Counted from the stretch's first letter, positions 16,648 to 38,947 are shown. The stretch: DNA of 64,000 nucleotides from a virus (IMGVR_UViG_3300008116_000173:8522-72521), one strand, 5' to 3'. The notes: generated from the letters alone by a model not told the origin. Made by a program: numbers and translations.

Positions 16648-16974
16648 TTATCTATTATCTCCAGAGCCTTGTATTACACCTCTGTTCATCCTATCTTTTA
16701 ATTTAGCTATATTATTTTCTGCAATAGCATTCATATCAAGTCCTAAATCTCTAGATAAGGCAGCTATATACCAAAGTACATCACCTATTTCTTTACCAAT
16801 CTCTACCACACTAGCAGGTGAATATACGCCATTATTATCCCGTAATACTTTTTTAATCTTACCTAAAACTTCACCAGCTTCATTGCTAAGACCTAAAGCA
16901 GGGTAAATAATTTTGCTATTGTCACTGTAAACAGCTGTCTGTGCAGCTTCATTTTGATATTCGTTAAACGTCAT
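16648..16974 (-). CDS. mazG: MazG-like nucleoside triphosphate pyrophosphohydrolase
   Basis: MTFNEYQ...YPALGLSNEAGEV...KEIGDVLWY...NIAKLKDR...GSGDNR is the classic phage MazG-like signature. Confidence 0.9.
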   Translation of the reverse strand: MTFNEYQNEAAQTAVYSDNSKIIYPALGLSNEAGEVLGKIKKVLRDNNGVYSPASVVEIGKEIGDVLWYIAALSRDLGLDMNAIAENNIAKLKDRMNRGVIQGSGDNR

Positions 16975-17924
16975 TTTGTTTCTTTTATTACTGCAAAGCT
17001 AGCATAAGCTCCACATTTTTTACATTGTTTTTGTATTTTTAACACACCTGTAGCAGTTATACGTTTTTTACAATATGCTAAATCATTATTACCACATTTA
17101 GGGCAAGTATGTTTATCATGACCACGTAATACACCTACATGTGTTTTAGCTGATACATAATTTTCAAGTTTCTTAAATACACGTTCTAATAATAAAACAT
17201 CATTACAACAATATTTAATCATCTTGCTTAAGGCTGTAGGATCATTATTTTCAATAATCTTTTTCCACAATTCAAACCCACCTGTATCTATTTTCTTCCC
17301 TACTTTAAGTATTTGACCTATGTAGTCCAACCTGTTAGAGTTAAATTTAAACTCTTTACGGGCTATTTTAAGTGTATCTATACTGGTTATAGAAGGCATG
17401 TTTCTAATACCATGATATAAACACCTGGTTTTGAACCACTTAATATCAAACTTATCTGAATTATGACCTACAATCTCATCAGCATCCATTATAATTTTAT
17501 AGAACTGATGGATCATTTCATAATCATCACCTTTATTCCAATGTAAAGAATGTACTTTATTTTCATGTTCCCATTTGTAACATATACAAATAATGGCTCT
17601 TTCCTTAATAATATTTTGGTAACCTACATTAAGGTTATAACCAATAGTCCATGAATAAACAACATTAGGGCTTGTTTCAATGTCAAAATATAGGCGTTTT
17701 AAGCTATTTTTAGGCATTTTAAAGACACTTTGTTGTTCAGGTATACTTTTACTTGGTTTAGATTTAGTAAACGATTTAAAGTTATCCTGAGCTGTTTTTT
17801 TAGCTATTACAATATCATTTAGTGACCACCTAGGCCACATTGATTTTATAAACTTTACGTTTTTCTTGAAATAGCCTGGTCTATCCATTAGCCATTTATA
17901 TATAACTAATTGATTTTCAGTCAT
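16971..17924 (-). CDS. DnaQ/DEDD-like 3'-5' exonuclease (RNase H-like) with C-terminal Zn ribbon
   Basis: LYFDIETS, GHNSDKFDIKW, YCCNDV motifs; CPKCG...CKKCG. Confidence 0.85.
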   Translation of the reverse strand: MTENQLVIYKWLMDRPGYFKKNVKFIKSMWPRWSLNDIVIAKKTAQDNFKSFTKSKPSKSIPEQQSVFKMPKNSLKRLYFDIETSPNVVYSWTIGYNLNVGYQNIIKERAIICICYKWEHENKVHSLHWNKGDDYEMIHQFYKIIMDADEIVGHNSDKFDIKWFKTRCLYHGIRNMPSITSIDTLKIARKEFKFNSNRLDYIGQILKVGKKIDTGGFELWKKIIENNDPTALSKMIKYCCNDVLLLERVFKKLENYVSAKTHVGVLRGHDKHTCPKCGNNDLAYCKKRITATGVLKIQKQCKKCGAYASFAVIKETK

Positions 17925-18384
17925 TTGTTTTTGTTTTATATACTACATTACGGTCATCAACACCTTTATTTGTTTTTTGACTATCTAAAATCATCATAAT
18001 ACTGGCTGCTGCATTAGCCAAATGATTAGTACCAATCTCATCAATATCTTCCCCACGTAACCATTGGTTTAAATGACGCATAGCTGCTGCTATATAACGC
18101 CTGTAATTAGTACCATGACTATAATTAAATACCCCATATTTTTGAGCACCTTTTGAAAATACTATTGCTATTTCTAATAATGCTTCTTGTGGTATTAATG
18201 TAAAGTCAGGTTTATCATGATCAAATTTTATAGTTTCTTTAATTTCTACAGTATTTGAATTACTATATGTAGTATTTGATTTATAATTAGGATAATATTC
18301 TCCTATTTTAGGTGCAGAAACCCTATTTTCTAGGGCTTCTGTTCCATTTGCTGGTCTATTTAGTTTATTAAAGTCAAATTCCAT
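17917..18384 (-). CDS. dATP/dGTP diphosphohydrolase-like protein (DUF5664 type)
   Basis: KFDHDKPDFTLIP...VFSKGAQKYG..NY..G...RYIAAAMRHL..W..GED.D...HLANAA. Confidence 0.8.
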   Translation of the reverse strand: MEFDFNKLNRPANGTEALENRVSAPKIGEYYPNYKSNTTYSNSNTVEIKETIKFDHDKPDFTLIPQEALLEIAIVFSKGAQKYGVFNYSHGTNYRRYIAAAMRHLNQWLRGEDIDEIGTNHLANAAASIMMILDSQKTNKGVDDRNVVYKTKTND

Positions 18385-24235: not shown

Positions 24236-24964
24236 TTATTTATAGATTTTATCCCAATGAGTTACAATTTGACCATTTACTTCTTCAGCCAGTACAATCT
24301 CTTGATTTTTTAAATGGTCAGGTCTGGCACCACAAGTTACTTCCTCATTAGTTTTAAAGCTGATTACAGTTTGATTATCACGTCTAAACACATAACCAAT
24401 GGCATCAGCACCAGCGCATATTAATGATTTAATTTTACCAGTCAAATCAATATTTGCAGCCATTACTAATTCACCACTATCATCTACTTGTTTGTCTTTT
24501 ATATGACCTACAAGGATAATGTGTTCAGCTAATGAATCAATATAATCTAGCACTTGAAAGAATGCTTCACGCAGATATAAATAACCAGCGCCATTAGGTA
24601 ATTTAAGTACATCATCACCTGTAAATCTACTACCCATAGCTGTGTCTTTATATAATTTTAAAGCAAGCGGTTTAACCATATCTTCTAAAGCTGTGACAGT
24701 GTCAATAGCTACATATTTATATGGTCTATTATTAAGCTTAATTTGCTCACCAACAGCTTTTAATTCAGTAAGGGTATTAACCTTTACTTTTAAAGCTTCA
24801 ACGTAATCTGAGCCATCTTCCAAGTCAATAATTAAATTGTTATCTAAACCTGCAAGAGCTGTAGTCTTGCCAGTTTTAGGTTTTGAGTAAATAACCAAGC
24901 GTTTTGGGTTTACTCGTTCTGCCTTAAGTTTTTTAGTAGGCAATTTTATAGTTGTTTCTGTCAT
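24236..24964 (-). CDS. AAA_24/Sak4-like ATPase (recombination/annealing)
   Basis: Walker A YSKPKTGKTT, IIDLEDGS, AIDTVT, GAGY, ADAIGY. The likely start is MTETT at 24964 (ATGA overlap with the helicase stop) rather than 24985. Confidence 0.85.
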   Translation of the reverse strand: MTETTIKLPTKKLKAERVNPKRLVIYSKPKTGKTTALAGLDNNLIIDLEDGSDYVEALKVKVNTLTELKAVGEQIKLNNRPYKYVAIDTVTALEDMVKPLALKLYKDTAMGSRFTGDDVLKLPNGAGYLYLREAFFQVLDYIDSLAEHIILVGHIKDKQVDDSGELVMAANIDLTGKIKSLICAGADAIGYVFRRDNQTVISFKTNEEVTCGARPDHLKNQEIVLAEEVNGQIVTHWDKIYK

Positions 24965-26037
24965 ATCATATTTCTTTCTAACCAACCTTGTGACATTTCA
25001 TCAGCAGGTGGTAGTTCTTTAAATGCCCCTGCTTTTGGCAAAAATAATAAACCAATAGCTATGTTGTCCCTACTTAGCCTATTTTTTATTATTTTTAATA
25101 ATCTGAATGAATCTTTTAGATTATATGGTGCTGCAAACTTATTAATATTATAATTAAGTGAGCTTTCCATATCCATTTTATAGGCATTCATTAGACCTAA
25201 TACTACATCAGCATCTGTATAAGGGTTAGTTGTATCTTTAAAGTCTGACTGTTGTGGAGATATGTCAATACCTTTAAATTTCTGTCGTTCTATAGAACTT
25301 AGACCCTGATTGAATTGCTGTAGCCATATAAAGGTCATTTTAAACATATTTCTAGCAATTACAGAATACTCAGATATCTTGTCAATATTTTGTTTTAATG
25401 TAAATCCTATATTATTTCTTGATTCTAGTTTAGCTATAGCTAAGTGATCACCAACAACAATGTTGTATTCTTTAGGATTATGTAAATCAAATCTAACAAT
25501 ACGTTCTTTTGTATTCCCAAATTCATCTGTATAGGGTTCCTTAATAAATGTCCCACGATCTTTCATAAAATCCCACCAGTATTTATACATACCTGTAGGA
25601 TTCTCCGCTTCCCATATAAAATGAATTCTGCTAAAAAGTTTTTCAACTGTTTCAACTTCACTAAAAACTAATAGTTGTTCTTCCTGACTTAACCTATATT
25701 TACCATAACCTTTTATACGTTCAGGTGGTATTACAATATTGTATTTTTTGTATATCAGTATGGACAGCCAATTAGCTTTCTTTGACATCTCATCAATTTC
25801 CCATGAATAATAAATGATGTTTATAGGTATACCTTTAGTATCTGCATCCTCAATAGCATTGAGTATCCAAAAGTCTAAGAATGTAGTCTTGGCACTACCT
25901 GATAAACCACCAATTAAATAATAACAGGCTCTTTGTGTTTTAAATATATAATCATTTATTCTGTCTAAGCCGTTACTTAAACCTTCGTAATCACCAGTTA
26001 AACCAGCGTATATTCTTTCTTTTAGATTAGATTGCAT
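24961..26037 (-). CDS. dnaB: DnaB-like replicative helicase
   Basis: GLSGSAKTT Walker A variant, YSWEI, VGDHL, LQQFNQ, DADVVLGL, IIKNR. Confidence 0.8.
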   Translation of the reverse strand: MQSNLKERIYAGLTGDYEGLSNGLDRINDYIFKTQRACYYLIGGLSGSAKTTFLDFWILNAIEDADTKGIPINIIYYSWEIDEMSKKANWLSILIYKKYNIVIPPERIKGYGKYRLSQEEQLLVFSEVETVEKLFSRIHFIWEAENPTGMYKYWWDFMKDRGTFIKEPYTDEFGNTKERIVRFDLHNPKEYNIVVGDHLAIAKLESRNNIGFTLKQNIDKISEYSVIARNMFKMTFIWLQQFNQGLSSIERQKFKGIDISPQQSDFKDTTNPYTDADVVLGLMNAYKMDMESSLNYNINKFAAPYNLKDSFRLLKIIKNRLSRDNIAIGLLFLPKAGAFKELPPADEMSQGWLERNMI

Positions 26038-26617
26038 CTACATTAGTTATTTTACTTATATTATAATCATTACTATCATTATTTGTTATATCGTCAACAT
26101 ATAACAAATAGTTTTTCTGATTTAACCAAACAGATAGGTCTTGCATATACATCTCAGAATTAGCCCTTATTTTCTCTTGGTGATATAATTTAGCAGCTTT
26201 ACATAATATGTCATGAGTTGTTTCCAAAAGTAATTTGTTGTATAGTTCTTTAGCCCGTTTTAAATTACCGTGTAACCTCCTTGGTACACCATTGTGCGTA
26301 TGCACTATTTTAGGATAAAAAGATCTAAATTCATCAAAATTACTCAACCCAGTTTTATCTTCTTTCATAAGCTCTGTAGCTTTCTGGGTAAGTGATAAGG
26401 ACTCAAAAAATATTAAATTGTTTTTAGCACGCTTTATATTTAGAAAACCTTTATTTTCTAATATATTAAATATATCACTAGGAAATGTTACATTATTCCT
26501 ATAGCTATGCAATAAATTCTCATCATTTTTATAAACACAATATATTATAAAATATTCTTCAAAACTTAATCTCTGCTCTAATATTGTCTTTACATCTATG
26601 ATAAGTTTTTCATCCAT
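26027..26617 (-). CDS. Putative replication initiator / helicase-loader-like protein
   Basis: N-terminal winged-helix-like part plus FDEFRSFYPK...YMQ.L.VWLNQ C-terminal domain typical of phage replisome organisers; adjacent to the helicase. Confidence 0.55.
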   Translation of the reverse strand: MDEKLIIDVKTILEQRLSFEEYFIIYCVYKNDENLLHSYRNNVTFPSDIFNILENKGFLNIKRAKNNLIFFESLSLTQKATELMKEDKTGLSNFDEFRSFYPKIVHTHNGVPRRLHGNLKRAKELYNKLLLETTHDILCKAAKLYHQEKIRANSEMYMQDLSVWLNQKNYLLYVDDITNNDSNDYNISKITNVDAI

Positions 26618-26852
26618 AATTTACTCCTACGTGTTTTAAAGTTAAATGTAAATCTTCCATTTCAAGCTCTATTAAAGATTTATAATAATCTTGTAAATCC
26701 CTTGTATTTGCTTGAAAATTGAATTCAAATTTAAGTTTTTCTACGGCAATTTCCAAATTTATATTGCCATATTTAGAAAATATTAGGGGCATGTAAACCC
26801 CTAATATAATTTGTTTTTGTGCTTGATTAAGCAACAATTTGTTTTCCAGCAT
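26610..26852 (-). CDS. Hypothetical protein
   Basis: ORF in the operon. Confidence 0.55.
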   Translation of the reverse strand: MLENKLLLNQAQKQIILGVYMPLIFSKYGNINLEIAVEKLKFEFNFQANTRDLQDYYKSLIELEMEDLHLTLKHVGVNYG

Positions 26853-26862
26853 GTTACATGTT

Positions 26863-27540
26863 TTACATACTAATTTCTCTTAACGCTTTGTCAAAAGATT
26901 TGTTAATTTCATGACCTCCACGGTCCCATACATGTTGTCTAAAGCCATTATTTGAATGATAACATCCATCAACTTTAATATAACTACCAATTAAAAGTAT
27001 TCCCTTTTCAGGATGTAAGATACATATCTTATCAGAACCTATTATATTTTTGGTTAATTTATCAAATAATTTACTGTTATCATAAGCCATATCCAACATG
27101 CCATTTACAGCCAACACATATCTTGTGAAGGCATAAGTGTCAGAAAACTTAGGATTTAATTTAACATACTCACTTATATCATAAAATATACCATTATGAA
27201 CCATACACGGTTTATCTGTAACAACATCTGTTGCTATTATTTCTAAATGGTTATCTGATATAACAAAAGGATGTGTATTTTCATCACTATTATCACCTTG
27301 AGTACCAAACCTATGATGTAATATTAAATGATCATTACTTGTTAAGTTCAAATCAGAAATATCACGTATCATGCGTTCAGCATTAAAGTAACCTTTCTTA
27401 ACACCTATTGTATTAGCATTGCCTTTTTTATACATAAAACCACTACCATCAGTATTAGTTTTCATGCCTTGTATAATATAACGGCTAATATTTCTAATAT
27501 TCTTTTCAACCCCTTGAGGTATTACACTAATTAAACACAT
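26863..27540 (-). CDS. Class II (Ntn) glutamine amidotransferase
   Basis: N-terminal Cys (MCLI), NTDGSG, HHRFGTQG, NTHPF, HNG, SDT. Confidence 0.88.
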   Translation of the reverse strand: MCLISVIPQGVEKNIRNISRYIIQGMKTNTDGSGFMYKKGNANTIGVKKGYFNAERMIRDISDLNLTSNDHLILHHRFGTQGDNSDENTHPFVISDNHLEIIATDVVTDKPCMVHNGIFYDISEYVKLNPKFSDTYAFTRYVLAVNGMLDMAYDNSKLFDKLTKNIIGSDKICILHPEKGILLIGSYIKVDGCYHSNNGFRQHVWDRGGHEINKSFDKALREISM

Positions 27541-27541
27541 T

Positions 27542-29095
27542 TTATAAGTTTTTTAAGGATATATTATTATCTAATTCATTATCAACATACTCATCATTTT
27601 CAGTAAATTCAGCATCATTAAACTTAGCTATACGTTTATCAACCCAAGCTATAAGTTTATTTGCTTTCTGTCCATATACTTCAGTAAGTATTTTTGCTAA
27701 TGATAGATTACTATTTTCATAAATAAAACGTTTATGATTTTCAACAATATCTACTAAAGCCATACAGATTAACAACCAGTTTTTAATCTTAATATAAGAT
27801 GTAGAACCAGGTGCTGGTCTGAATTCAATAGTATAAATCTTGTTTTTCCTAGTATTAAATAATGCAGGTACAAAATTTACCCAGCAATAACGTGCTGAAT
27901 CATGATCATAACCACATTTATAACCTTTAGGATGGTCATTCTTTTTATTTACTTTTTTACTAGGATTATTATTTGCGCTAACATATCTAACAATAGCTTC
28001 ATAAGTAACATCTATAGCATAATTCCTATTAAAGCTTTGTAAGTCTTTAATATTAAAATTTATCATAGGACGACTATCTAAGAATCTACAATATGTATTA
28101 TTACGACGAGATTTAGGTAACATTGTAAATATCTCACGTTGTAATTTATGATACAAATAATACATTAAAACAATATTTTCTTTGTTAAAGTTAATATTGG
28201 ATAAATGCACATGCACACCACATTGATGATTTACTAAACAACGTTTAGTTAACTCATTACAAAGCTTTTTTAGTTTAAGTAAACCACGGTCACCCATTAA
28301 TACATCAGTAACATATTCCTTACCATAAGGATGATTGTTTTCAGCATCACGTAATGAACCATCATGAACACTAGAACAATTTAATGGTGCTAGTACATGT
28401 GCAGGTACTAAACCACTAATAGTTTCTATTTCTAAACCAAAACTATAACGTTTACCATAAGTATTATGATATGTTGTAGGTAGATTGTTATTATCACTTG
28501 GTGCATTAAATTTAATACCATCAACACGCATTTGTTTTACAAATGGTTCAATTTCAGATTTAAGTTTAAATATACCTGTATAATAATCTTCAGCGTAAAA
28601 TTTATTAAAAGTTGCATTAGCAAGTAAACTTGGTTTACCTAGATATGGTTTATTAGATTGTATACGTATATAACCTAATCTAAAAGCTTGATCATGATCA
28701 CAAGTATACTTTATTTCAGAATCAATTATAGGATAATTCTCAATAACAGCTGTTGCATTAAATTTAATAATATAACGATCTGATTCAAAATAATCTGTTA
28801 CAATATTAGGATCATCAGGCCTAGCATAAGAATCATGAAGTTGTATTAAATCATTTGAATATTCTACAACTTCACCTGTATATAACATTACCTCATTTTC
28901 ATCTAAATCAGGTTCATAAGGATTATTGTCATCATCATGTACTTCTGTATACTCATCTTCTGAAGGGTTAAACCAAAGATCATCAAGAGTTGTAGATATT
29001 ATATCAGTAGATGTGGGTACTACATCTGGTTCAGGAGCATCTGGTTCAGGTGGTGTTAAATTTTCAGGTATTGAATGATTTGGAATTATTGGCAT
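27542..29095 (-). CDS. Putative amidoligase (Amidoligase_2 / glutamine synthetase-like COOH-NH2 ligase)
   Basis: FGLEIET, HDGSL, KEYVT, CGVHVH, RYCWVN, TIEFR; acidic/Pro-rich N-terminal extension. Confidence 0.85.
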   Translation of the reverse strand: MPIIPNHSIPENLTPPEPDAPEPDVVPTSTDIISTTLDDLWFNPSEDEYTEVHDDDNNPYEPDLDENEVMLYTGEVVEYSNDLIQLHDSYARPDDPNIVTDYFESDRYIIKFNATAVIENYPIIDSEIKYTCDHDQAFRLGYIRIQSNKPYLGKPSLLANATFNKFYAEDYYTGIFKLKSEIEPFVKQMRVDGIKFNAPSDNNNLPTTYHNTYGKRYSFGLEIETISGLVPAHVLAPLNCSSVHDGSLRDAENNHPYGKEYVTDVLMGDRGLLKLKKLCNELTKRCLVNHQCGVHVHLSNINFNKENIVLMYYLYHKLQREIFTMLPKSRRNNTYCRFLDSRPMINFNIKDLQSFNRNYAIDVTYEAIVRYVSANNNPSKKVNKKNDHPKGYKCGYDHDSARYCWVNFVPALFNTRKNKIYTIEFRPAPGSTSYIKIKNWLLICMALVDIVENHKRFIYENSNLSLAKILTEVYGQKANKLIAWVDKRIAKFNDAEFTENDEYVDNELDNNISLKNL

Positions 29096-29097
29096 AA

Positions 29098-30621
29098 TTA
29101 AAGTTTTTGATCCATTGTTAATAATTGATAATGCATTGTTTCAGCATTTGTTTTTAATTGTTTAAGTGTTTCACAAACATCAAAAGTATCATCACATTCA
29201 CCTTTACTGAGTATGGTAATTAACATTTGTAATTCAACATCAAGATTTGTAAAAAATGAATCTGTTTTTGTTAGTACTTCTTCAATGTCAAGTTCAGTAT
29301 CAGCATCATTAAAATCATCATGATTAACCATTGGTGTAGTATTATGTTTGGTTATATCTTTTACTACAGGATGCACAGTTGTAGGTGTATTATAAATATC
29401 ATAAGCATCATAATAACCTTCATAATAACCATCTGTTGAAGTATAATCATTAACAGCTGTATTATTATTTTTATATGTTCTTATTTCTAAGTCTGTAGCA
29501 GCTCTGAAATAACGACGGTCTGCATTACAAATATCTTTTTTAGTATTGTAATTTTCAAGACTTAAGATGTTATTATTGACTTTAGTAATTGTTACAAGTT
29601 CATCAACATCAATAACAACTTCTTTCTTATCATCAACAATATCATATAAAGATACTGCAGTGTCCCATATTTCAAGATAATCATTTGTATTAAAATAAGA
29701 TTTGTGATATATTTCTACTGGTGAATTATCTTCATCTTTTTGTTTAACCTCTAACATACCAAATTCTGTTGCACCACATATAAAATAAAATTTATCTTGT
29801 ATGAGTTTGAATTTACGTGTAGTAGAAGTATCATTAAAGTTTGCCCTTAACCAAGAATTAACTAATTCATTAGGTTGTACAAAACTATTATAATAACCAC
29901 TGTTTGTATTATAGTTACCATATGTAGTATTATTATAACCAGTATTAATAAAAGGACGTTTGTAAGGTGTATTATTAATTTTAACAGTTTTTTCAACAAT
30001 ACCATCACATATTGTGTATACTGTATCTACTTTAAATTCTTTAACACTTTCACAACCAATATAAATTAATGATTCTTTAATAGATGATATATACATACAA
30101 CCATCAATCATACCTCTAAATAAAGGACGTTCTGTATTCCTAAAAACAAATAATTTATTAGGCATAGTAGTTTTATGCATAATAATTGCTGCAGGACCAT
30201 CAATTTCCTTTAACACACTAATGTTATCTTGTTTACTTATTGCACCACATATAACGTCACTATCTACAGAATATTCCATAGTTGACAATTCATACTTATG
30301 TGCTAAATCTAAGTGATTTTTAAGTGTACCATTGTGTTGAAGATACCAATCCCCTCGTTTGAAGGGATGAGTATTTTCAAGTGTATTTAAACCAATGGTT
30401 TTAGCTCTAACGTGAGCCATTAGAATTGTGTCAGGTATTAATTTAAAGTTATTATGAATAACTACATCAGAACCCTTGTTTAAGGTCCTATTATGCCCAT
30501 TTAAGGGACTATAAAAACCAGTAGCATCTTCACCACGTTCTAAAGAATTCCATAATGTTAATAATTTTATTTTCTCAATATCAAATGGTTTGGTACCACT
30601 GTAACCTAATTGTCCACACAT
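29098..30621 (-). CDS. Class II (Ntn) glutamine amidotransferase with long C-terminal extension
   Basis: MCGQLG, RGEDATG, AHVRAKT, NTHPF, HNGTL, VDSD, RPL. Confidence 0.88.
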   Translation of the reverse strand: MCGQLGYSGTKPFDIEKIKLLTLWNSLERGEDATGFYSPLNGHNRTLNKGSDVVIHNNFKLIPDTILMAHVRAKTIGLNTLENTHPFKRGDWYLQHNGTLKNHLDLAHKYELSTMEYSVDSDVICGAISKQDNISVLKEIDGPAAIIMHKTTMPNKLFVFRNTERPLFRGMIDGCMYISSIKESLIYIGCESVKEFKVDTVYTICDGIVEKTVKINNTPYKRPFINTGYNNTTYGNYNTNSGYYNSFVQPNELVNSWLRANFNDTSTTRKFKLIQDKFYFICGATEFGMLEVKQKDEDNSPVEIYHKSYFNTNDYLEIWDTAVSLYDIVDDKKEVVIDVDELVTITKVNNNILSLENYNTKKDICNADRRYFRAATDLEIRTYKNNNTAVNDYTSTDGYYEGYYDAYDIYNTPTTVHPVVKDITKHNTTPMVNHDDFNDADTELDIEEVLTKTDSFFTNLDVELQMLITILSKGECDDTFDVCETLKQLKTNAETMHYQLLTMDQKL

Positions 30622-30622
30622 A

Positions 30623-31432
30623 TTAAATTAATTGTTTAATGTTAGTAATATTTAAATTATAATCTTCAATAATATCGGTAGCTATCCGTTGATTGCATGA
30701 ATTAACAGCATCAATTATATCACCAGGGTTAGTAATAATACCACCTTGATTAACAAAATTAATAGCTGCTTGTGTTTGGTCATAAACCCAGCTTATAAGT
30801 TGGTCATTTTGTATAAAATAACTACTTAATACACGGTATTCTACACCATATTTCTTCATCCTAAAATCACCAGCTTTACCATACATTTTCCTACGTTCAT
30901 TATCTGGGTCAATAAGTACACTAGGTACACCTAGGAATAAATCCATAGCCCTGATAATATCAATAGAAGTTTGATCATTAGGATTATCATAACCCACATG
31001 AATATGCATACCAGTAGTACGTAATGTATAATCACTACGATCTACCTGATGTTCTTCAAATGACCATGCATCATATGATTTACTACAACCCATATGCTGA
31101 GCTGCAGGATTGCTTAAATCATCTTCATTAAAACGTGCTGAAGCTACATAATGAGGTATTAATTCTAAAGGCTTTAATACTGTTTCAGTAATATAATTCT
31201 TTACAAAATTAATACTATTAATAAATTCAGTTTTAGTTGTAGCTGGCGGTATTGTAAATTCTAATGCCACGTTATCTTCTTGTAAAGAATAGCCTATATT
31301 TTCTTCATTAATAGGGATAGGTTTTTCTTTTGTACCACCAACTAAACCACATACAGGTACATATTTACCATAAAGTGGTGAGTATAAAAATAATTCAGGA
31401 TCTGTACCAATTTTTGCGTTATTAATTTTCAT
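30623..31432 (-). CDS. phiEco32-like COOH-NH2 ligase type 2
   Basis: IGTDPELF, GGTKEKP, QEDNVALEF, LRTTGMHIHVG, RRKMYGKAG.FR.K.YGVEYRVLS. Confidence 0.9.
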   Translation of the reverse strand: MKINNAKIGTDPELFLYSPLYGKYVPVCGLVGGTKEKPIPINEENIGYSLQEDNVALEFTIPPATTKTEFINSINFVKNYITETVLKPLELIPHYVASARFNEDDLSNPAAQHMGCSKSYDAWSFEEHQVDRSDYTLRTTGMHIHVGYDNPNDQTSIDIIRAMDLFLGVPSVLIDPDNERRKMYGKAGDFRMKKYGVEYRVLSSYFIQNDQLISWVYDQTQAAINFVNQGGIITNPGDIIDAVNSCNQRIATDIIEDYNLNITNIKQLI

Positions 31433-31437
31433 AGTTT

Positions 31438-32004
31438 TTAAATTAGTTTGTTAAAAATTTTAATTAAGCCACCACGTTTATTTACATATTGATCTACAAT
31501 AGCATATGATTGAGCTAAATAAGGTTCTAAAAGTAAATTAGCAGTATTATCAGCACTAACACTATATGTTACACATGTATAACCAAATAAATCAGCTAAA
31601 TCTTCAGCAATAGTTAATCCTAATTCAAAATATTCAGGATGTTTATTGCTGCCATACATACCATTTAATTCCATATTGTTAATAACTGCAGTTGAACAAT
31701 TACCAAATAATTCATTTACATTAAATCTTATATTTGATAATGGTCTATATTGTTCATATTCACTTTTAGTTTCATAAAAATAAATACGAAACTCATTATC
31801 AATAAAATGTGCATGAATAGTATTATTAGCTTTACTTATAACTCTTATATGTTTAGGCTTTATAATTTTACTATATTTTTCCTGAATTAATTTTGTAGCT
31901 AAAGATTCAATATAAAGATCTAATGCTTTTAAAAACATAGGTGCTTTGTGAGCATCCATACCACCATAATTTGATTTGATGTTTTTTATTTCATTTCTTT
32001 CCAT
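31438..32004 (-). CDS. Hypothetical protein, possibly GNAT-like fold
   Basis: GNCS...AEDLADLFGYTCVTYSV...YVNKRGG resembles phage GNAT-like proteins; located inside the ligase cluster. Confidence 0.45.
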   Translation of the reverse strand: MERNEIKNIKSNYGGMDAHKAPMFLKALDLYIESLATKLIQEKYSKIIKPKHIRVISKANNTIHAHFIDNEFRIYFYETKSEYEQYRPLSNIRFNVNELFGNCSTAVINNMELNGMYGSNKHPEYFELGLTIAEDLADLFGYTCVTYSVSADNTANLLLEPYLAQSYAIVDQYVNKRGGLIKIFNKLI

Positions 32005-32846
32005 TTTAAAATAATTAAATTTGTTAATTGTTGTAAATAATGTTTATGTGTTAATGTACCAAATGATGGTGCGCTACAACTTTCAATAATAATATATTCA
32101 CAAGATTTTCTTCTTTGACCTTTACTATTAGTTGCAGATTGTACTTTTACATCAAAAGCGCCTATATCTAAACCTAATTGTTTTAAAGCTTTAACACAAT
32201 CCTGTATAATATCATTAAAATTAATAGGTTCATCAAATTTTTCATTGTCTTGTAAAATCCATACACAGTTATCATCATGTCTTTGAAAACGTTTATTTTC
32301 AGGTGTATCATTTTTTAACATTTTACGACAGGTATAAAAACAACCATTTTCAGTAACATGTAAACGATATTCACGAGAATATGTATAGAATTTCTCAAAT
32401 ATATAATTACTTAAGTCCTTATCAGCCATCCATGCTTTTAGTTCTTCTGGTGTATTATGTTTTACATTACCAGTACCACGTGAACCATGTATATGTTTAG
32501 ATAACATAGGATATGGTAAATCATTAATAGATACTGAAATATTAAGTTTTTTATCTAAAAACATAATTTCTGAATTAGCACTATTAAAAGTATACCAATC
32601 TGCTGTTTTTATATTGGCTTGGTTAAAACATTGTTTCATTAGAAACTTATTAGCACTATTAATTATACCTTGTATAGAATTTATTTCTACTTGAGGTTTA
32701 AATATAGCACCACTTGTTGTAGAACCTAAGCGTATAACAGATCTGAATCTAAATAAAGGTAATTCACTACGTAAATTACTATGACTAGGATGTCTACTAA
32801 ATACTTTTGGTCTAAAAGCTGTTAATTTTTTCTTTTTAGTAATCAT
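31986..32846 (-). CDS. ATP-grasp ligase (RimK/phiEco32-like)
   Basis: NSANK, GSRGTG loop, REYRLHV, LGLDIGAFDV, IIESCSAPS. Confidence 0.85.
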   Translation of the reverse strand: MITKKKKLTAFRPKVFSRHPSHSNLRSELPLFRFRSVIRLGSTTSGAIFKPQVEINSIQGIINSANKFLMKQCFNQANIKTADWYTFNSANSEIMFLDKKLNISVSINDLPYPMLSKHIHGSRGTGNVKHNTPEELKAWMADKDLSNYIFEKFYTYSREYRLHVTENGCFYTCRKMLKNDTPENKRFQRHDDNCVWILQDNEKFDEPINFNDIIQDCVKALKQLGLDIGAFDVKVQSATNSKGQRRKSCEYIIIESCSAPSFGTLTHKHYLQQLTNLIILKWKEMK

Positions 32847-33613
32847 AAAAGTTTAAGGTTTTTTTGGTCTATCATAAAAAGATAATTTTTAGATTTAATC
32901 TGACAATATGTTGTAGAAGATACTTTACGTATATCACTTACAACATAATCAGTTTTTACATTTAAAGGAAGACGACCAGGATTAATTATATTAACTTTAC
33001 TACCTACAACTATTTTAGTAATTTTAGGTAAAGAATAACCTTTAAATAATTGTATAAAATTAGGTTCAACTAATTCTAAATCAGAAGCTACAAATTTTAA
33101 ACTTTTATTAATTTCAGGGTTATATACTTCAGCAATAGTTTGTGTTTCACCTGTTTCTTTACAAACATAATTGGTTAAAACTTTTGTAATTACAAATTGT
33201 TTACCAACCATACTTTGTTTGACATTTGTATATTTAAAAAGCTCACTAGATTTTTTAAAATCTACAACTTTAAATATTAAATTATCAAGTAAATTTTTAT
33301 AACCTGAAAGTTCAAGATGTGCAAATTGTATAGTATTATTAAAATTTATTAATGAATCAGTTCTAAATCTATGTATAAAATCTTTTAACTCAAATAATCT
33401 ATAATTTTTAGTAGAATTATCTAAAATTATTATAAAATTTTTCTCTTGATATTCAGGTTTAAATCTTATAATAAAAGCATTATAACCTTGTATTAAACTA
33501 TTATGTATATGACGATAAGCACCTGTTGCATATCTGACATATTCTACACGTGTATCTGTTAAAATTAATCGTTTTATATGTTCTGTTAAGTTATTAAAAT
33601 TGTTCATAATCAA
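32843..33613 (-). CDS. Hypothetical protein (possible SH3/KOW-like repeats)
   Basis: 256-aa ORF coupled to polB and the ATP-grasp gene. Confidence 0.6.
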   Translation of the reverse strand: MIMNNFNNLTEHIKRLILTDTRVEYVRYATGAYRHIHNSLIQGYNAFIIRFKPEYQEKNFIIILDNSTKNYRLFELKDFIHRFRTDSLINFNNTIQFAHLELSGYKNLLDNLIFKVVDFKKSSELFKYTNVKQSMVGKQFVITKVLTNYVCKETGETQTIAEVYNPEINKSLKFVASDLELVEPNFIQLFKGYSLPKITKIVVGSKVNIINPGRLPLNVKTDYVVSDIRKVSSTTYCQIKSKNYLFMIDQKNLKLL

Positions 33614-35513
33614 ATAATGTTAATTGTTTATCAATAATTAAATTTATTTCTTTATAACATTCTGTTACATAAAAATTATAATCAATATTATATTGAGCAA
33701 TTGGTTTTGCTACATATGTATTAAATATAGTTACTGTGTAACCTTTGTTAATTAATTCTGTAGTACCTTTTTTATAATGTTTTATAAATACAGCACCTTT
33801 GTTAGATATATAATATCTGACATTTTTTTGTTGTTTTTCTCTAATGATTTGTTCACCATTTAAATAATGAATTTCACTATGGTCACCTTCCCTGAATTTC
33901 TGTCTACCACAAAAATCATAAATATTGGTATGGTTTAATATTGTAGTTTCTACAGGTGTATTATTTACAAAATACTCTTGTAATGCTAAAGGTATAATCC
34001 TAAATGAATTATCCTTATGATAAGCTGGTTCACTACCAACTACTTTATCTACTTCAAACCTACCTTTATTTTTAATTTTACCTTTAGTAGATACAGCAAT
34101 ATAATTATTAACATCAGCAATAATCATTTTACTGTAATTCACATATTCAAGATTTAATTTAGTTTTAACTTCCCAATCTTTACACAATTGATAATATAAA
34201 GCTTCATCTGACTTTTTAAGTTTTACAGTAATACCATCAGTATTAACTTGTAAAACAGTCAGGTTACTTATAGTATCAACTAATGTTTCAGCAAGCAAGC
34301 TTAATAACAATTGACCATTTAATGTTATACTCATTGTAAACTTTGGGTCATATAAAAAGCTGTTAACATCATTAGATTTACCATATACACTATTAGCAGC
34401 AAGCTTAAATCCATCAGATAACACCATATTACCTGCTTTTTTAGCCTGCATACGTAAATCAATAATACCTTTATATACTTCAACAAAGTCCTGACCTAAA
34501 TGCTCAGGGTAAAATCCATTAGTAATAGCTAAATTAGGGTATAGTGAACCCACATCAGCATCAATAATAATAGTTTCATTATCAGCTTCATACACACCAG
34601 GTTTAATACAACCATGAATACCACCAGTACCATAATCATACTTAAAACCTTTATAAACAACAGATTCTGCAAAAGCACCTTTAGTATTATTTATGGTAGT
34701 TTGTTTAAAAGTATGTAGTAATGTGTTAAATTCTACAGAGTTAAACGTAATGTAAGGTAAAATAACGTCATTTAAGGCTATTTTTAGCCTATCTGAGCGT
34801 AGTTTTTTAACTTCATGTGTGTCAGTATCAGTTTTATCACAATAAAGCTTTAAAATCAATTGTTCGCCTATTTTACTATCAGACCAGTTTAAGCATGGTA
34901 TGTTATAGGTGTTCATTAAAGATTTGCGTAATTCAATTTTAGGTAATGATTTCTTATAAAATTCATAAGTAGCCATAACATCATTAAGGTTATAGGCTAA
35001 TATACCTGCAATTTCTTCAGCTGTAATATTAGTTCTGGTATGTTCTATTGGCATTTCCATAACATTAGGGTAGTTCATGCTAATCTCTAAGGATTTTAAG
35101 CTTGTACTCCTGGCTTTGTTATTATAATGCCATAGTTTAAATAGATCTAATTGAGGTATTAATACTTCAGAGTGTTTAACTGCTACAACATTGTGGAATT
35201 TATCTTGTATTTGTTCCTGTATAATTTGTTGAGCTTTAAGGTAAAGGCCATCAACGATTTCATAAGGGTTATTTTTAACTCTATAACTCCTTGTTGTTAT
35301 CAATTTATGAATAACAGGATAGTCAAAATTAACATTATTAAAACCTATGTGGCCTTTACATATTTTCAAATGCTTTAACAGTTCTTTACAATCATTCCTA
35401 TCCTTATGTATAACATATTGCACAGTTTCATGTGTATCAATGTTATACGCTGTATAGGTAAAACAACTAGCTAATGTTTCAATATCATATACCCATACAT
35501 TTCTGTTATCCAT
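33594..35513 (-). CDS. polB: Family B DNA polymerase with 3'-5' exonuclease
   Basis: YDIET, FNNVNFD, YNLNDV (exonuclease); DADVGSLYPN, KLAANSVYGKS, VNTDG (polymerase). Confidence 0.92.
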   Translation of the reverse strand: MDNRNVWVYDIETLASCFTYTAYNIDTHETVQYVIHKDRNDCKELLKHLKICKGHIGFNNVNFDYPVIHKLITTRSYRVKNNPYEIVDGLYLKAQQIIQEQIQDKFHNVVAVKHSEVLIPQLDLFKLWHYNNKARSTSLKSLEISMNYPNVMEMPIEHTRTNITAEEIAGILAYNLNDVMATYEFYKKSLPKIELRKSLMNTYNIPCLNWSDSKIGEQLILKLYCDKTDTDTHEVKKLRSDRLKIALNDVILPYITFNSVEFNTLLHTFKQTTINNTKGAFAESVVYKGFKYDYGTGGIHGCIKPGVYEADNETIIIDADVGSLYPNLAITNGFYPEHLGQDFVEVYKGIIDLRMQAKKAGNMVLSDGFKLAANSVYGKSNDVNSFLYDPKFTMSITLNGQLLLSLLAETLVDTISNLTVLQVNTDGITVKLKKSDEALYYQLCKDWEVKTKLNLEYVNYSKMIIADVNNYIAVSTKGKIKNKGRFEVDKVVGSEPAYHKDNSFRIIPLALQEYFVNNTPVETTILNHTNIYDFCGRQKFREGDHSEIHYLNGEQIIREKQQKNVRYYISNKGAVFIKHYKKGTTELINKGYTVTIFNTYVAKPIAQYNIDYNFYVTECYKEINLIIDKQLTLFDYEQF

Positions 35514-35997: not shown

Positions 35998-36200
35998 AGT
36001 TTTTCTATTTCTTGTTTGACTTTAGTCCAAAATTCATATCCTCTATCAGCACCCATGTAACCTAATACTTCATTACAAGTTATTAAAGCACATTCTTTAG
36101 CATTTTCTAGCGAAAGAGTGGTGTATTGAGCTTGCTCCCATTTAATTCCGAGATATCCAAACTTTTGACATAGTTGGAGTGCTTTTTCTCTTGGTGTCAT
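35994..36200 (-). CDS. Small hypothetical phage protein (MTPREKA...WTKVKQEIEKL family)
   Basis: Recurrent small protein pattern of Bacteroidota phages; overlap-coupled. Confidence 0.65.
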   Translation of the reverse strand: MTPREKALQLCQKFGYLGIKWEQAQYTTLSLENAKECALITCNEVLGYMGADRGYEFWTKVKQEIEKL

Positions 36201-36877
36201 ATTTCAAATATATTTCCGTTATATGTTAAACCTAAATCAAATCTTCTATCAGTTACTCCTGCTGCATTACTAAATGTAATACCATAGTCAGGTAAATATC
36301 TGAATCCAGTATTGATTATATCTTCAAAGTTGTGAATGTGTCCTGATAAAAAGTATTTTGGTTTAATTCTATCCAAAACATGTTTGCGCAAAGCACCATC
36401 ACCACAAAACTCTAATACATTTTGTCTATTTCGAGATAAATCCAATATACCTTTGCATGGACCATGCACTGCAACTATATCCATTCCTTCAGGTATTTGT
36501 TCCCAAACACGGTTTATAGTTTCTCTTGATTTCATAAAAGCCCAATTACCAAATGTTGGTGTGAATGGACTACCAAATATCTTTATACCATTTACATCCA
36601 TCCAATCGTGATTGAGTAAATGAATGCCACGAGATATAAAATCAGATACTTTAACCAAACCACGTTCAATTGAAGTATCATGATTACCTGGAATGAAGAT
36701 TTTGTTTGGTATAGGTACTTGTTCATACCAATCTATAAACTTACGAACTTCATTTTCATTAGGAAATGGGTCTTTGTGATTACTACAATCGCCTGTATGA
36801 ATAACCAAGTCAATATCTTCAGGTATAACAAGTCGGAGGTGAAATCCGTGTGTATCTGATATGTGCCAAATTTTCAT
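36197..36877 (-). CDS. Calcineurin-like metallophosphoesterase
   Basis: ISDTHG, HTGD, PGNHD, VHGP, SGHIH. Confidence 0.9.
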   Translation of the reverse strand: MKIWHISDTHGFHLRLVIPEDIDLVIHTGDCSNHKDPFPNENEVRKFIDWYEQVPIPNKIFIPGNHDTSIERGLVKVSDFISRGIHLLNHDWMDVNGIKIFGSPFTPTFGNWAFMKSRETINRVWEQIPEGMDIVAVHGPCKGILDLSRNRQNVLEFCGDGALRKHVLDRIKPKYFLSGHIHNFEDIINTGFRYLPDYGITFSNAAGVTDRRFDLGLTYNGNIFEI

Positions 36878-37996: not shown

Positions 37997-38854
37997 TTAA
38001 AATATGTATCTAATTGTATTCCAAGGTATTATACTATCATGTAATTCTTTAAACTGTTCAATAAACTCAGTTTTTAAATAATGTTTATACCTTATATTTT
38101 TACCACCATATTGTGATATTTTATCTTCTTGAATATCTGGTTGCCATAATAATTCTTCACCAGGTATATTATTAATGATATTATATTGATGTTTATTAAC
38201 ATTATGTGTAAGGAATATAACTTCACATTTAACCATGTCTTTATAATCAACATAATCATTAACCATTTGAAATAAATATTCATAATCTTCAAGCCAATTA
38301 TGATATACTACGACAGGACTAAAATTAATATGTACATCATAACCAGCATCAATAAATGCATCAATAGCTTTAATTCTATCTATTATTTCAGATGTATTAG
38401 GTTCTAATATATCAGATATATTTTGTGGCATAAGACTAAATCTAATCCTTACTTTAAATTCAGGATCAAATGTTGTTAATGTAGGATTAACATATTTAGT
38501 AGCAAATGAACCAAAAGCTTTGGGATGTTCTTTAAAGAATTTAAATATATATTCCCATTTGTGGTATTTAGCATGTAATGCAAAATCTTCATTACATGAT
38601 ATGTCATAAGTAATGTATTCTGAATGTGTTTGATTAGGTTTTGATACGTCAGCTAAAAACCAGACGTGATTATTTATAGCATCAAGTATTTGACTTGCAT
38701 TATTAGCTATATCTAACCCATCTGGTTTATGCCTTTTCATATAACAATAACCACAATTGTACAGACATCCATAACCAAAACTAGGACTAATATAATCAGT
38801 TGACCTACCACTAGGTCTGATTATCATTGATTTTCTTGTTAATTGTTTTAACAT
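37997..38854 (-). CDS. Spore photoproduct lyase-like radical SAM protein
   Basis: GCLYNCGYCY (CxxxCxxC), DISCNED (Cys at an SPL C141-like position), FATK.VN, RIRFSLMP, EP.TS.I.DRI.AI, GY.VHINFSPV. Confidence 0.8.
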   Translation of the reverse strand: MLKQLTRKSMIIRPSGRSTDYISPSFGYGCLYNCGYCYMKRHKPDGLDIANNASQILDAINNHVWFLADVSKPNQTHSEYITYDISCNEDFALHAKYHKWEYIFKFFKEHPKAFGSFATKYVNPTLTTFDPEFKVRIRFSLMPQNISDILEPNTSEIIDRIKAIDAFIDAGYDVHINFSPVVVYHNWLEDYEYLFQMVNDYVDYKDMVKCEVIFLTHNVNKHQYNIINNIPGEELLWQPDIQEDKISQYGGKNIRYKHYLKTEFIEQFKELHDSIIPWNTIRYIF

Positions 38855-38868
38855 AATTTATTTTTTAG

Positions 38869-38936
38869 TAGTCAGGGCAGGTCCGAGCTGCATCTCTCAT
38901 CTACTATGATGAGGCGTTACCTTACGCCACCTGACT
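38869..38936 (-). ncRNA. Degenerate tRNA-like cloverleaf element (pseudo-tRNA)
   Basis: Minus strand AGTCAGG-TG-GCGT AAGGTA ACGC-CTCATC ATAGTA GATGAG-AGAT-GCAG CTCGGAC CTGC-CCTGACT-A. Four perfect stems, but the anticodon loop and T-loop are non-canonical. Confidence 0.6.
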
Positions 38937-38947
38937 AACATTATTGA

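Follow-up and report, generated by a model that had tools for sequence, protein, structure and literature searches.

A lineage-specific variant of the phage amidoligase cassette in the replication gene block of a freshwater crAss-like phage

What chemistry do seven tightly packed genes for amide-bond enzymes carry out between the DNA polymerase and helicase genes of a virus, and how far is their arrangement new? These questions are raised by IMGVR_UViG_3300008116_000173:8522-72521, a 64,000-nucleotide stretch (hereafter the window) corresponding to bases 8522-72521 of a 72.5-kb IMG/VR virus record estimated to be 53% complete. ORF (open reading frame) calling places seven minus-strand ORFs, here called g1 to g7, exactly at positions 26863-33613, between the genes for a family-B DNA polymerase (polB) and a DnaB-like helicase. 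Judged from their sequences, they are a lineage-specific variant of a known phage amidoligase cassette, new through its accessory genes. A divergent GNAT-fold protein (g3), a second N-terminal nucleophile (Ntn) amidotransferase (g7) and a protein with a barrel-like end (g1) are specific to this freshwater crAss-like lineage; the GNAT-fold g3 and the g1 family are new in degree only. The identities that a first-pass annotation of the window had proposed for the seven genes were all upheld, and its 'GNAT-like' call for g3 was confirmed by the predicted fold. In order of transcription, the genes are (aa, amino acids):

32843..33613, minus strand: g1, 256 aa; TTG start, an ATG two codons in also being possible
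31986..32846, minus strand: g2, 286 aa, RimK-like ATP-grasp carboxylate-amine ligase (phrog_2599)
31438..32004, minus strand: g3, 188 aa, divergent GNAT-fold protein, probable N-acyltransferase (predicted fold)
30623..31432, minus strand: g4, 269 aa, COOH-NH2 ligase type 2 (PF14395, phrog_3815)
29098..30621, minus strand: g5, 507 aa, long Ntn (class-II) glutamine amidotransferase (PF13522)
27542..29095, minus strand: g6, 517 aa, Amidoligase_2, glutamine synthetase (GS)-like (PF12224, phrog_2443)
26863..27540, minus strand: g7, 225 aa, second Ntn amidotransferase/amidohydrolase paralogue, short form (hhalign)

The two GS-like ligases were recognized directly by their families. g4 matches PF14395, named in Pfam 'Phage phiEco32-like COOH.NH2 ligase-type 2', with 48.9 bits against a cut-off of 25 (6.6e-13), as well as phrog_3815 (1.2e-67); by the naming of the Pfam family, its fold is glutamate-cysteine ligase (GCS)/GS-like. 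Across 11 phages, 26 columns of the g4 alignment are invariant, including E13, E58, H143, H145, R180, E198 and R200. g6 matches PF12224 over residues 249-448 (50.7 bits, cut-off 22, 3e-13) and phrog_2443 (3.9e-20). Its Amidoligase_2 domain, at about 215-460, follows an unassigned N-terminal domain and an acidic N-terminus that appears disordered by its composition, and E222, E224, H295, H297, E424 and R426 are invariant in 15 homologues. Sequence searches with g4 or g6, singly or as profiles, found no match among solved structures. The third ligase, g2, belongs to phrog_2599 (1.4e-23). Searched alone by sequence it matched no solved structure; a profile built from 14 homologues, with 41 invariant columns, matches solved ATP-grasp enzymes (PurK, 7.4e-6; PurD, 5.6e-4; an L-amino-acid ligase; Ddl).

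The long amidotransferase g5 matches PF13522 with 54 bits (cut-off 27, 2.2e-14), over residues 61-180 only. After the Ntn domain (1 to about 215) come a low-complexity linker, a beta-rich middle part that varies, and an acidic/helical tail that has no known family; residues 230-507 gave no usable ESM Atlas match, and hhalign did not link the C-terminal part to other parts of the cassette. C2, R29, G30, H70, R72, N97, G98, D120 and S121 are invariant in 15 homologues. Degenerate catalytic residues, raised by the first-pass annotation as a possible objection, were not found: the residues are conserved across 11-15 homologues of each enzyme. We take the roles of the invariant residues in g2 and g4 to g7 to be those of the catalytic residues of the parent families. 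A complex prediction for g5 (1-507) with g6 (70-517), using their own alignments, scored 0.00 and is uninformative either way. Four g5 homologues (L009 6458-8104, L070 9912-11681, L081 10129-11868 and L030 12239-13534) carry a hydrophobic stretch of 30-40 residues before the catalytic Cys, with no Met adjoining this Cys. The stretch is either a cleaved propeptide, a membrane anchor or the product of a miscalled start.

The genes are maintained together. Their order from g1 to g7 is kept at 30-70% protein identity in three independent IMG/VR contigs (L005, L006 and L018), which answers the question of co-occurrence raised by the first-pass annotation; in a further contig, L009, six of the seven are detectable and a divergent 205-aa ORF occupies the g3 slot. 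Compared with L004, a contig 98-99% identical to the window, the ratio of non-synonymous to synonymous differences per site (pN/pS) is 0.18 over g1-g7, with 29 synonymous and 21 non-synonymous differences. Because the order is kept in independent contigs and pN/pS is low, the block is more than a chance assembly. These comparisons show one tightly coupled, conserved unit under purifying selection, comprising four intact core enzymes and three lineage-specific partners.

How widespread the unit is was evaluated by a census. The best 80 of at least 555 related IMG/VR stretches retrieved by a pattern scan were examined; hidden Markov models (HMMs) built from the first loci were used to score every ORF of 94 loci, and 8 near-duplicates were removed by hand, leaving 86 loci that still hold close relatives (for example L088, L089, L091 and L092). 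All four core genes (ATP-grasp, COOH-NH2 ligase, long Ntn and Amidoligase_2) occur in 71 of the 86, and the long Ntn gene adjoins Amidoligase_2 in 68 of these 71 complete cassettes. Three arrangements were distinguished. The window type reads polB, g1, ATP-grasp, g3 or another protein, COOH-NH2 ligase, Ntn, amidoligase, g7, helicase. The type of phi14:2 and cr108_1, two crAss-like phages of the Steigviridae, reads primase, gamma-glutamyl cyclotransferase (GGCT), ATP-grasp, the class-I amidotransferase C26, ligase, Ntn, amidoligase, uracil-DNA glycosylase. The podovirus type reads C26, ligase, a family of about 200 aa, amidoligase, Ntn, ATP-grasp, GGCT. In GenBank, tblastn detected g4 homologues in 318 of 50,697 phage records, phiEco32 included; grouped by the first word of their organism names, the records comprise Pseudomonas (121), Escherichia (94), Vibrio (22) and others. 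The cassette, whose original description is reportedly that of Iyer et al. in 2009, is thus among the most widespread phage enzyme-gene sets without a known product, and the window copy adds little alone. Three ligases, singled out in the first-pass annotation as notable, are simply the invariant core.

An enzyme of a type that cleaves gamma-glutamyl or glutamine substrates is present in 67 of the 71 complete cassettes: C26 in 48, GGCT in 33 and a g7-type protein in 16. In the window, no GGCT/GGACT (PF06094) was found in the seven proteins or in the 72.5-kb record, as the first-pass annotation had stated, and Peptidase_C26 has no match in the record either; both are also missing from five related records, one of them 93% complete. 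Neither this absence nor the pair of amidotransferases sets the window apart, as had been suggested, because 38 of the 71 complete cassettes also lack GGCT and a second amidotransferase-type gene, C26-type or g7-type, is common. g7 resembles the N-terminal domain of the long amidotransferases (hhalign probability 92.7%, E 4.4e-7), and M1, C2, H75, R77, H115, N116, G117 and D134 are invariant in 15 homologues. Most of its relatives measure 415-554 aa and have an additional C-terminal domain that belongs to no known family, and L030, L031, L033 and L071 likewise encode short forms (220-241 aa). By sequence, g7 is the sole candidate for a gamma-glutamyl-cleaving enzyme in this cassette, as are g7-type proteins in 9 of the 71 complete cassettes, the window included.

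For the divergent g3, no Pfam (GNAT models included) or PHROG match was obtained. Its AlphaFold2 (AF2) model (pLDDT 87.4, pTM 0.86) has 132 Foldseek matches in the Protein Data Bank (PDB) at E <= 1e-3, the best at 5.6e-6, and almost all of the matches listed are GNAT acetyltransferases. With VIA-align, essentially all of the best 50 neighbours are GNAT-type or GNAT-domain proteins (Z 8.8-10.8 over 105-149 aligned residues), the top score of 10.8 extending over 133 residues. A profile of the g3 family retrieved 141 representative clusters at E <= 1e-3 among 1.84 billion proteins. When 70 members were scanned, 12 matched PF00583 (Acetyltransf_1; best 2.6e-7) and 9 matched PF13508 (Acetyltransf_7), and C103 and Y142 are kept in at least 90% of them. 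g3 therefore has the fold of the GNAT superfamily and its own conserved motif, ELFGNC...Y...NKR. HMM scoring found g3 in 4 of the 71 complete cassettes, and also in the truncated locus L019; tblastn of the GenBank phage collection found no homologue. In L046, a podovirus-type cassette, a tandem pair of g3-family genes adjoins the COOH-NH2 ligase (BLAST 5e-9 to L006, 4e-4 to the window). This arrangement is unrelated to the window type, and the pair there speaks for the scheme proposed below. No hhalign link was found between g3 and the podovirus family of about 200 aa that follows the ligase, nor with the GGCT or C26 families.

g1 belongs to no Pfam or PHROG family. Its AF2 model is confident only at residues 112-256 (pLDDT 65-87, apart from a dip to about 50 at 185-197), residues 1-111 lying below 50, and it is the C-terminal half that is conserved among homologues. 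Residues 200-256, approximately, resemble an SH3/Tudor/KOW-like beta-barrel, a weak match (VIA-align Z 6.2-7.9 over 46-62 residues) since Z values of 6-8 are below the reliability mark of the tool and may reflect a common arrangement. The best named match in the ESM Atlas is T4 MotB (0.80, below the threshold for a lead). HMM searches place the g1 family in 8 non-duplicate loci, always between polB and the ATP-grasp gene, and BLAST clustering gives 15 sequences, near-duplicates counted; all are of the window type. A targeting domain shared within the cassette was looked for and rejected, as g1, the middle and end of g5, the N-terminal domain of g6 and the C-terminal domain of g7 relatives are unlinked by hhalign (all probabilities <= 0.4%).

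The window phage has a G+C content of about 28%, and its terminase, portal and major capsid proteins were assigned to PHROG families. Over 99% of its length, the major capsid protein (phrog_11589, 1.4e-112) shares 39-42% identity with those of Crassvirales including cr118_1 and cr56_1 (tblastn, 145 records matched), and on this evidence the phage is a distant crAss-like phage, as the first-pass annotation had held. A long minus-strand block, running from about 39.4 to 23.6 kb, comes after two giant ORFs of 3290 and 2056 aa. This block opens with small ORFs, an SPL-like radical SAM gene, a metallophosphoesterase gene and polB, and continues after g1-g7 with genes for an 80-aa and a 196-aa protein, the DnaB-like helicase, a Sak4-like ATPase and a 194-aa protein. 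A terminator-like hairpin at 23619-23577 closes it, with the primase gene beyond. The immediate neighbours of the cassette are:

33594..35513, minus strand: polB, family-B DNA polymerase (phrog_1252, 4.2e-150), upstream neighbour of g1
26610-26852, minus strand: conserved 80-aa protein, downstream of g7
26027-26617, minus strand: 196-aa protein, downstream of g7
24961-26037, minus strand: DnaB-like helicase (PF03796, 8.8e-5), 71-75% identical in relatives

From the coordinates, polB and g1 overlap by 20 nt, g1 and g2 by 4 nt and g2 and g3 by 19 nt; the following gaps are 5 nt (g3/g4), 1 nt (g4/g5), 2 nt (g5/g6), 1 nt (g6/g7) and 10 nt (g7 to the next ORF). On the coding strand between 39442 and 23619, no terminator-like site was found besides two weak internal ones, at 27900-27879 in g6 and 30934-30921 in g4. 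Matches to sigma-70-type promoters showed no excess (156 versus 151 in shuffles), crAss-like promoters being outside that scan. DNA near-identical to the window (0.84-0.99 of sampled words) is present in 20 sequencing runs from 13 studies, mostly freshwater or riverine metagenomes. Six of these runs are RNA libraries whose contigs hold the block; in three of them, single contigs of 15-17 kb extend from the primase side through the whole cassette to polB, with 44-54 differences. The window phage is an ecologically relevant carrier of the cassette, given its near-identical presence in the metagenomes of 13 studies and the block in contigs of six RNA-library runs. The 80-aa ORF belongs to a family of small helical proteins located between g7 and the 196-aa protein in 9 window-type loci, with a common Y/F-x-P...E-E...L-G pattern and variable C-termini. 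A Pup-like tag was considered and rejected, the conserved neighbour family of about 75 aa having no fixed C-terminal residue.

What could such a unit make? GS/GCS-fold and ATP-grasp ligases phosphorylate a carboxylate and then join it to an amine. Ntn amidotransferases free ammonia from glutamine or hydrolyse gamma-glutamyl amides, and GGACT and C26 enzymes cleave gamma-glutamyl amides. We think it fairly probable that this freshwater crAss-like phage carries a functional copy of the cassette of the phiEco32/LUZ24/RIO-1 type, and that a glutamate-type amide is built and trimmed during replication. In this scheme g4 and g6, with their GS/GCS fold, and the ATP-grasp enzyme g2 would each activate a carboxylate (most likely of glutamate type) at the expense of ATP and join it to an amine. 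g5 would partner its constant neighbour g6, glutamine-derived nitrogen turning a carboxylate into an amide; the near-constant adjacency of the two genes suggests such a two-part glutamine-dependent amidoligase. g3 would acylate a free amine of the product as a cap, a step particular to this lineage, and g1 may serve as a binding or targeting subunit. g7 would cut a glutamine-like or gamma-glutamyl amide, taking the slot held by GGCT and/or C26 in most other cassettes. Since a cleaving enzyme is nearly universal in the cassettes, a glutamyl group may be added and later removed or edited. Finally, the cassette would be read together with polB and the helicase gene, so that the product is made while the phage replicates. 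As to the target, our leading guess, tentatively held, is a peptide of the cell-wall-precursor type that already contains a gamma-glutamyl bond, the envelope of the infected cell being altered as a result.

Several observations weigh against this scheme. The chemistry assigned to the cassette derives wholly from family resemblance. Among the seven proteins Pfam identified no cell-wall-binding family, and nothing points specifically to the cell wall. No Pfam ATP-grasp model matches g2 at E <= 0.1. For g7, Pfam gives weak matches only (PF13230, E 0.013), none at cut-off, and its nearest solved relatives are weak as well (PurF, 0.0034); moreover, g7-type, GGCT and C26 genes occur together in 6 of the 71 complete cassettes, and are hence not simple substitutes. 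The acyl-CoA binding loop of GNAT enzymes has the form Q/R-x-x-G-x-G/A, and the alignment of g3 homologues contains no conserved glycine-rich loop between the strand at 105-115 and the helix at 123-139. Unlike its neighbours, g3 differs from its 97% identical L004 homologue by 0 synonymous and 5 non-synonymous changes; these counts are too few to interpret, yet they do not demonstrate constraint. The contigs from RNA libraries that span the block could also be due to DNA carry-over.

An action on the envelope has been proposed before. The available portions of PMC5498523 state a cell-wall and superinfection idea for the cassette and describe the RIO-1 version as a 'peptidoglycan modification cassette' of seven genes, surrounded by genes for transcription, DNA metabolism and replication. 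The idea is repeated in the consulted sections of PMC10580990, where the function is said to await exploration. The first-pass annotation had described the product of phiEco32-type sets as proposed and not demonstrated, and this stands: in the sections at hand, both papers still treat the function as hypothetical. It had also presented the siting with the replisome as a novelty, but the same parts of PMC5498523 already describe a replication-gene setting for podovirus cassettes. In the literature searched, as far as the texts were accessible, no paper gave experimental data on the cassette.

Among the alternatives, a soluble gamma-glutamyl peptide or gamma-glutamyl-amine, similar to glutathione or to gamma-glutamyl-polyamines, is possible although we would not bet on it. 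It would be amidated by g5/g6, acylated by g3 and deprotected by g7, glutamate serving as a building block or a temporary handle. The enzyme classes match those of gamma-glutamyl small-molecule pathways: glutathione synthesis uses GCS and an ATP-grasp enzyme, putrescine utilization a GS-like ligase and a C26 hydrolase, ergothioneine synthesis EgtA and EgtC, and butirosin synthesis an ATP-grasp ligase and a GGCT-type enzyme. Cassettes of other phages agree with this, since a C26-type class-I amidotransferase was identified by Pfam in phage O4 (9.7e-17) and GGACT in phi14:2 (2.8e-16), as does the lack of any carrier or tag protein with a conserved C-terminus, the conserved 75-aa neighbour being variable-ended. 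On the other hand, the proteins scanned included no transporter, no pyridoxal-phosphate enzyme and no other tailoring enzyme, and the g1 barrel and the extra domains of g5, g6 and long g7 forms are unusual for enzymes of a soluble pathway.

It is unlikely, in our view, that the enzymes instead modify a protein of the host or phage, putting glutamate or other residues on it in the manner of RimK on S6 or of Pup, with the Ntn enzymes editing the adduct. g2 does fall in a PHROG named after RimK, but this name is an annotation transfer. GS-fold ligases include protein-tagging enzymes, and the top fold neighbours of g3 include the protein N-acetyltransferases HP0935, RimJ, RimL and NatD; against this, no small protein was found that resembles a tag and ends in a fixed residue. 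The Tudor/KOW/SH3-like barrel at the end of g1 would suit a protein target, although that fold match is under the reliability mark of the tool. A broader form of the idea, to which we would likewise give little credence, is a replication-coupled covalent marking of a macromolecule, be it phage DNA, replisome or host protein, with g1 for targeting and g3 for lineage-specific capping; such marking would account for the fixed seat between polB and helicase in this lineage.

Least of all do we expect a tailoring of phage DNA bases or of the nucleotide pool, which would explain the seat in the replication module and is favoured by the position between polB and helicase in those window-type loci that reach polB, by the SPL-like radical SAM gene upstream in the same block and by amidoligase and amidotransferase genes reported beside thymidine-hypermodification genes in viromes (Lee et al., PMC8989533, in the part of the article available), because the partner genes were not found where looked for and the cassette occurs elsewhere without them. 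Thus, the ThyA-type hydroxymethylase (PF00303) was found neither in the window's own record (0/1) nor in related records (0/5, two of them 93% and 100% complete), whereas a control search found this family in 10 of 14 genomes. No ThyX was found, and no PurZ in the record. Among 30 proteins of the block compared with Pfam, there was no 5-HMUDK-type kinase and no aGPT-Pplase family, a scan that did not extend to its small ORFs or to the remainder of the incomplete genome. Many podoviruses carry the same cassette without hypermodification genes, and in the phi14:2-type arrangement it is followed by a uracil-DNA glycosylase gene.

Beyond the cassette, strains differ by gaps of whole genes in the region upstream of polB (35.9-40 kb), the cassette itself not varying in this way. 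This region contains the SPL-like radical SAM gene (37997-38854, minus strand; PF20903, 4.9e-22) and a calcineurin-like phosphoesterase gene (36197-36877, minus strand; PF00149, 2e-12). The latter is skipped, with a joint at 36219->36879, in contigs of three RNA-library runs; other joints skip 37770->37986 and 39413->39978. A tRNA-like gene at 38868-38936 (minus strand) received the abnormal anticodon call 'tRNA-???' from ARAGORN, and at 38868 and 38936-38937 the contigs of several runs either stop or diverge. Further along the minus strand, at 17917-18384 and 16648-16974, one protein has a dATP/dGTP diphosphohydrolase N-terminal domain (PF18909, 3.7e-28) and a MazG-type pyrophosphohydrolase is encoded nearby; as no homologue of the PurZ-type adenylosuccinate synthetase is present in the record, there is no sign of a 2-aminoadenine genome.

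Two of the related contigs show interrupted genes. In the 84.9-kb phage contig L006 (4101-6393), polB is split into two ORFs by an insert of about 370 nt, and in L009 (4693-6440) the COOH-NH2 ligase gene is split by an insert of about 250 nt just 5' of the H-x-H motif and followed by a Cys-rich 174-aa ORF. No group I intron was detected in either split gene with Rfam at the gathering threshold. L006 also carries a full-length tmRNA gene (803-1206; RF00023, 84.2 bits) and two tRNA genes (422-494 and 1776-1847).

A common freshwater crAss-like lineage thus has a version of the cassette with an Ntn paralogue as putative trimming enzyme and an added putative acyltransferase, and comparison of this version with those bearing GGCT and C26 could help in working out what intermediate they share. 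The first-pass annotation had proposed a kinship with the phiEco32-type set, and this was borne out. The phiEco32/LUZ24/RIO-1 cassette is made of the same four core families as that of the window, with amidotransferase and amidoligase genes as neighbours and an early/middle replication gene setting in both. The order of the window differs in starting with the ATP-grasp gene and in placing the amidoligase after the amidotransferase; GGCT, C26 and the family of about 200 aa are absent, and g1, the GNAT-fold g3 and the Ntn paralogue g7 are added. The crAss-like context, which had seemed a novelty, is not one. The literature searched held no paper describing the cassette in crAss-like phages, the link being provided by GenBank, where it is already annotated in cr108_1 (gp028-gp034) and in Cellulophaga phage phi14:2 (g037-g041: GGCT, ATP-grasp, COOH.NH2 ligase, aminotransferase and amidoligase). 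g2 is 50% identical to phi14:2 g038 and 40% to the cr108_1 ATP-grasp protein, and the COOH-NH2 ligases of these phages are 37% and 44% identical to that of the window, respectively. All three share the core order ATP-grasp, COOH-NH2 ligase, Ntn, amidoligase within a replication module. In phi14:2 and cr108_1, however, the cassette lies between primase and uracil-DNA glycosylase genes and carries GGCT and/or C26 together with a family of about 300 aa, whereas that of the window lies between polB and helicase and carries g1, g3 and g7.

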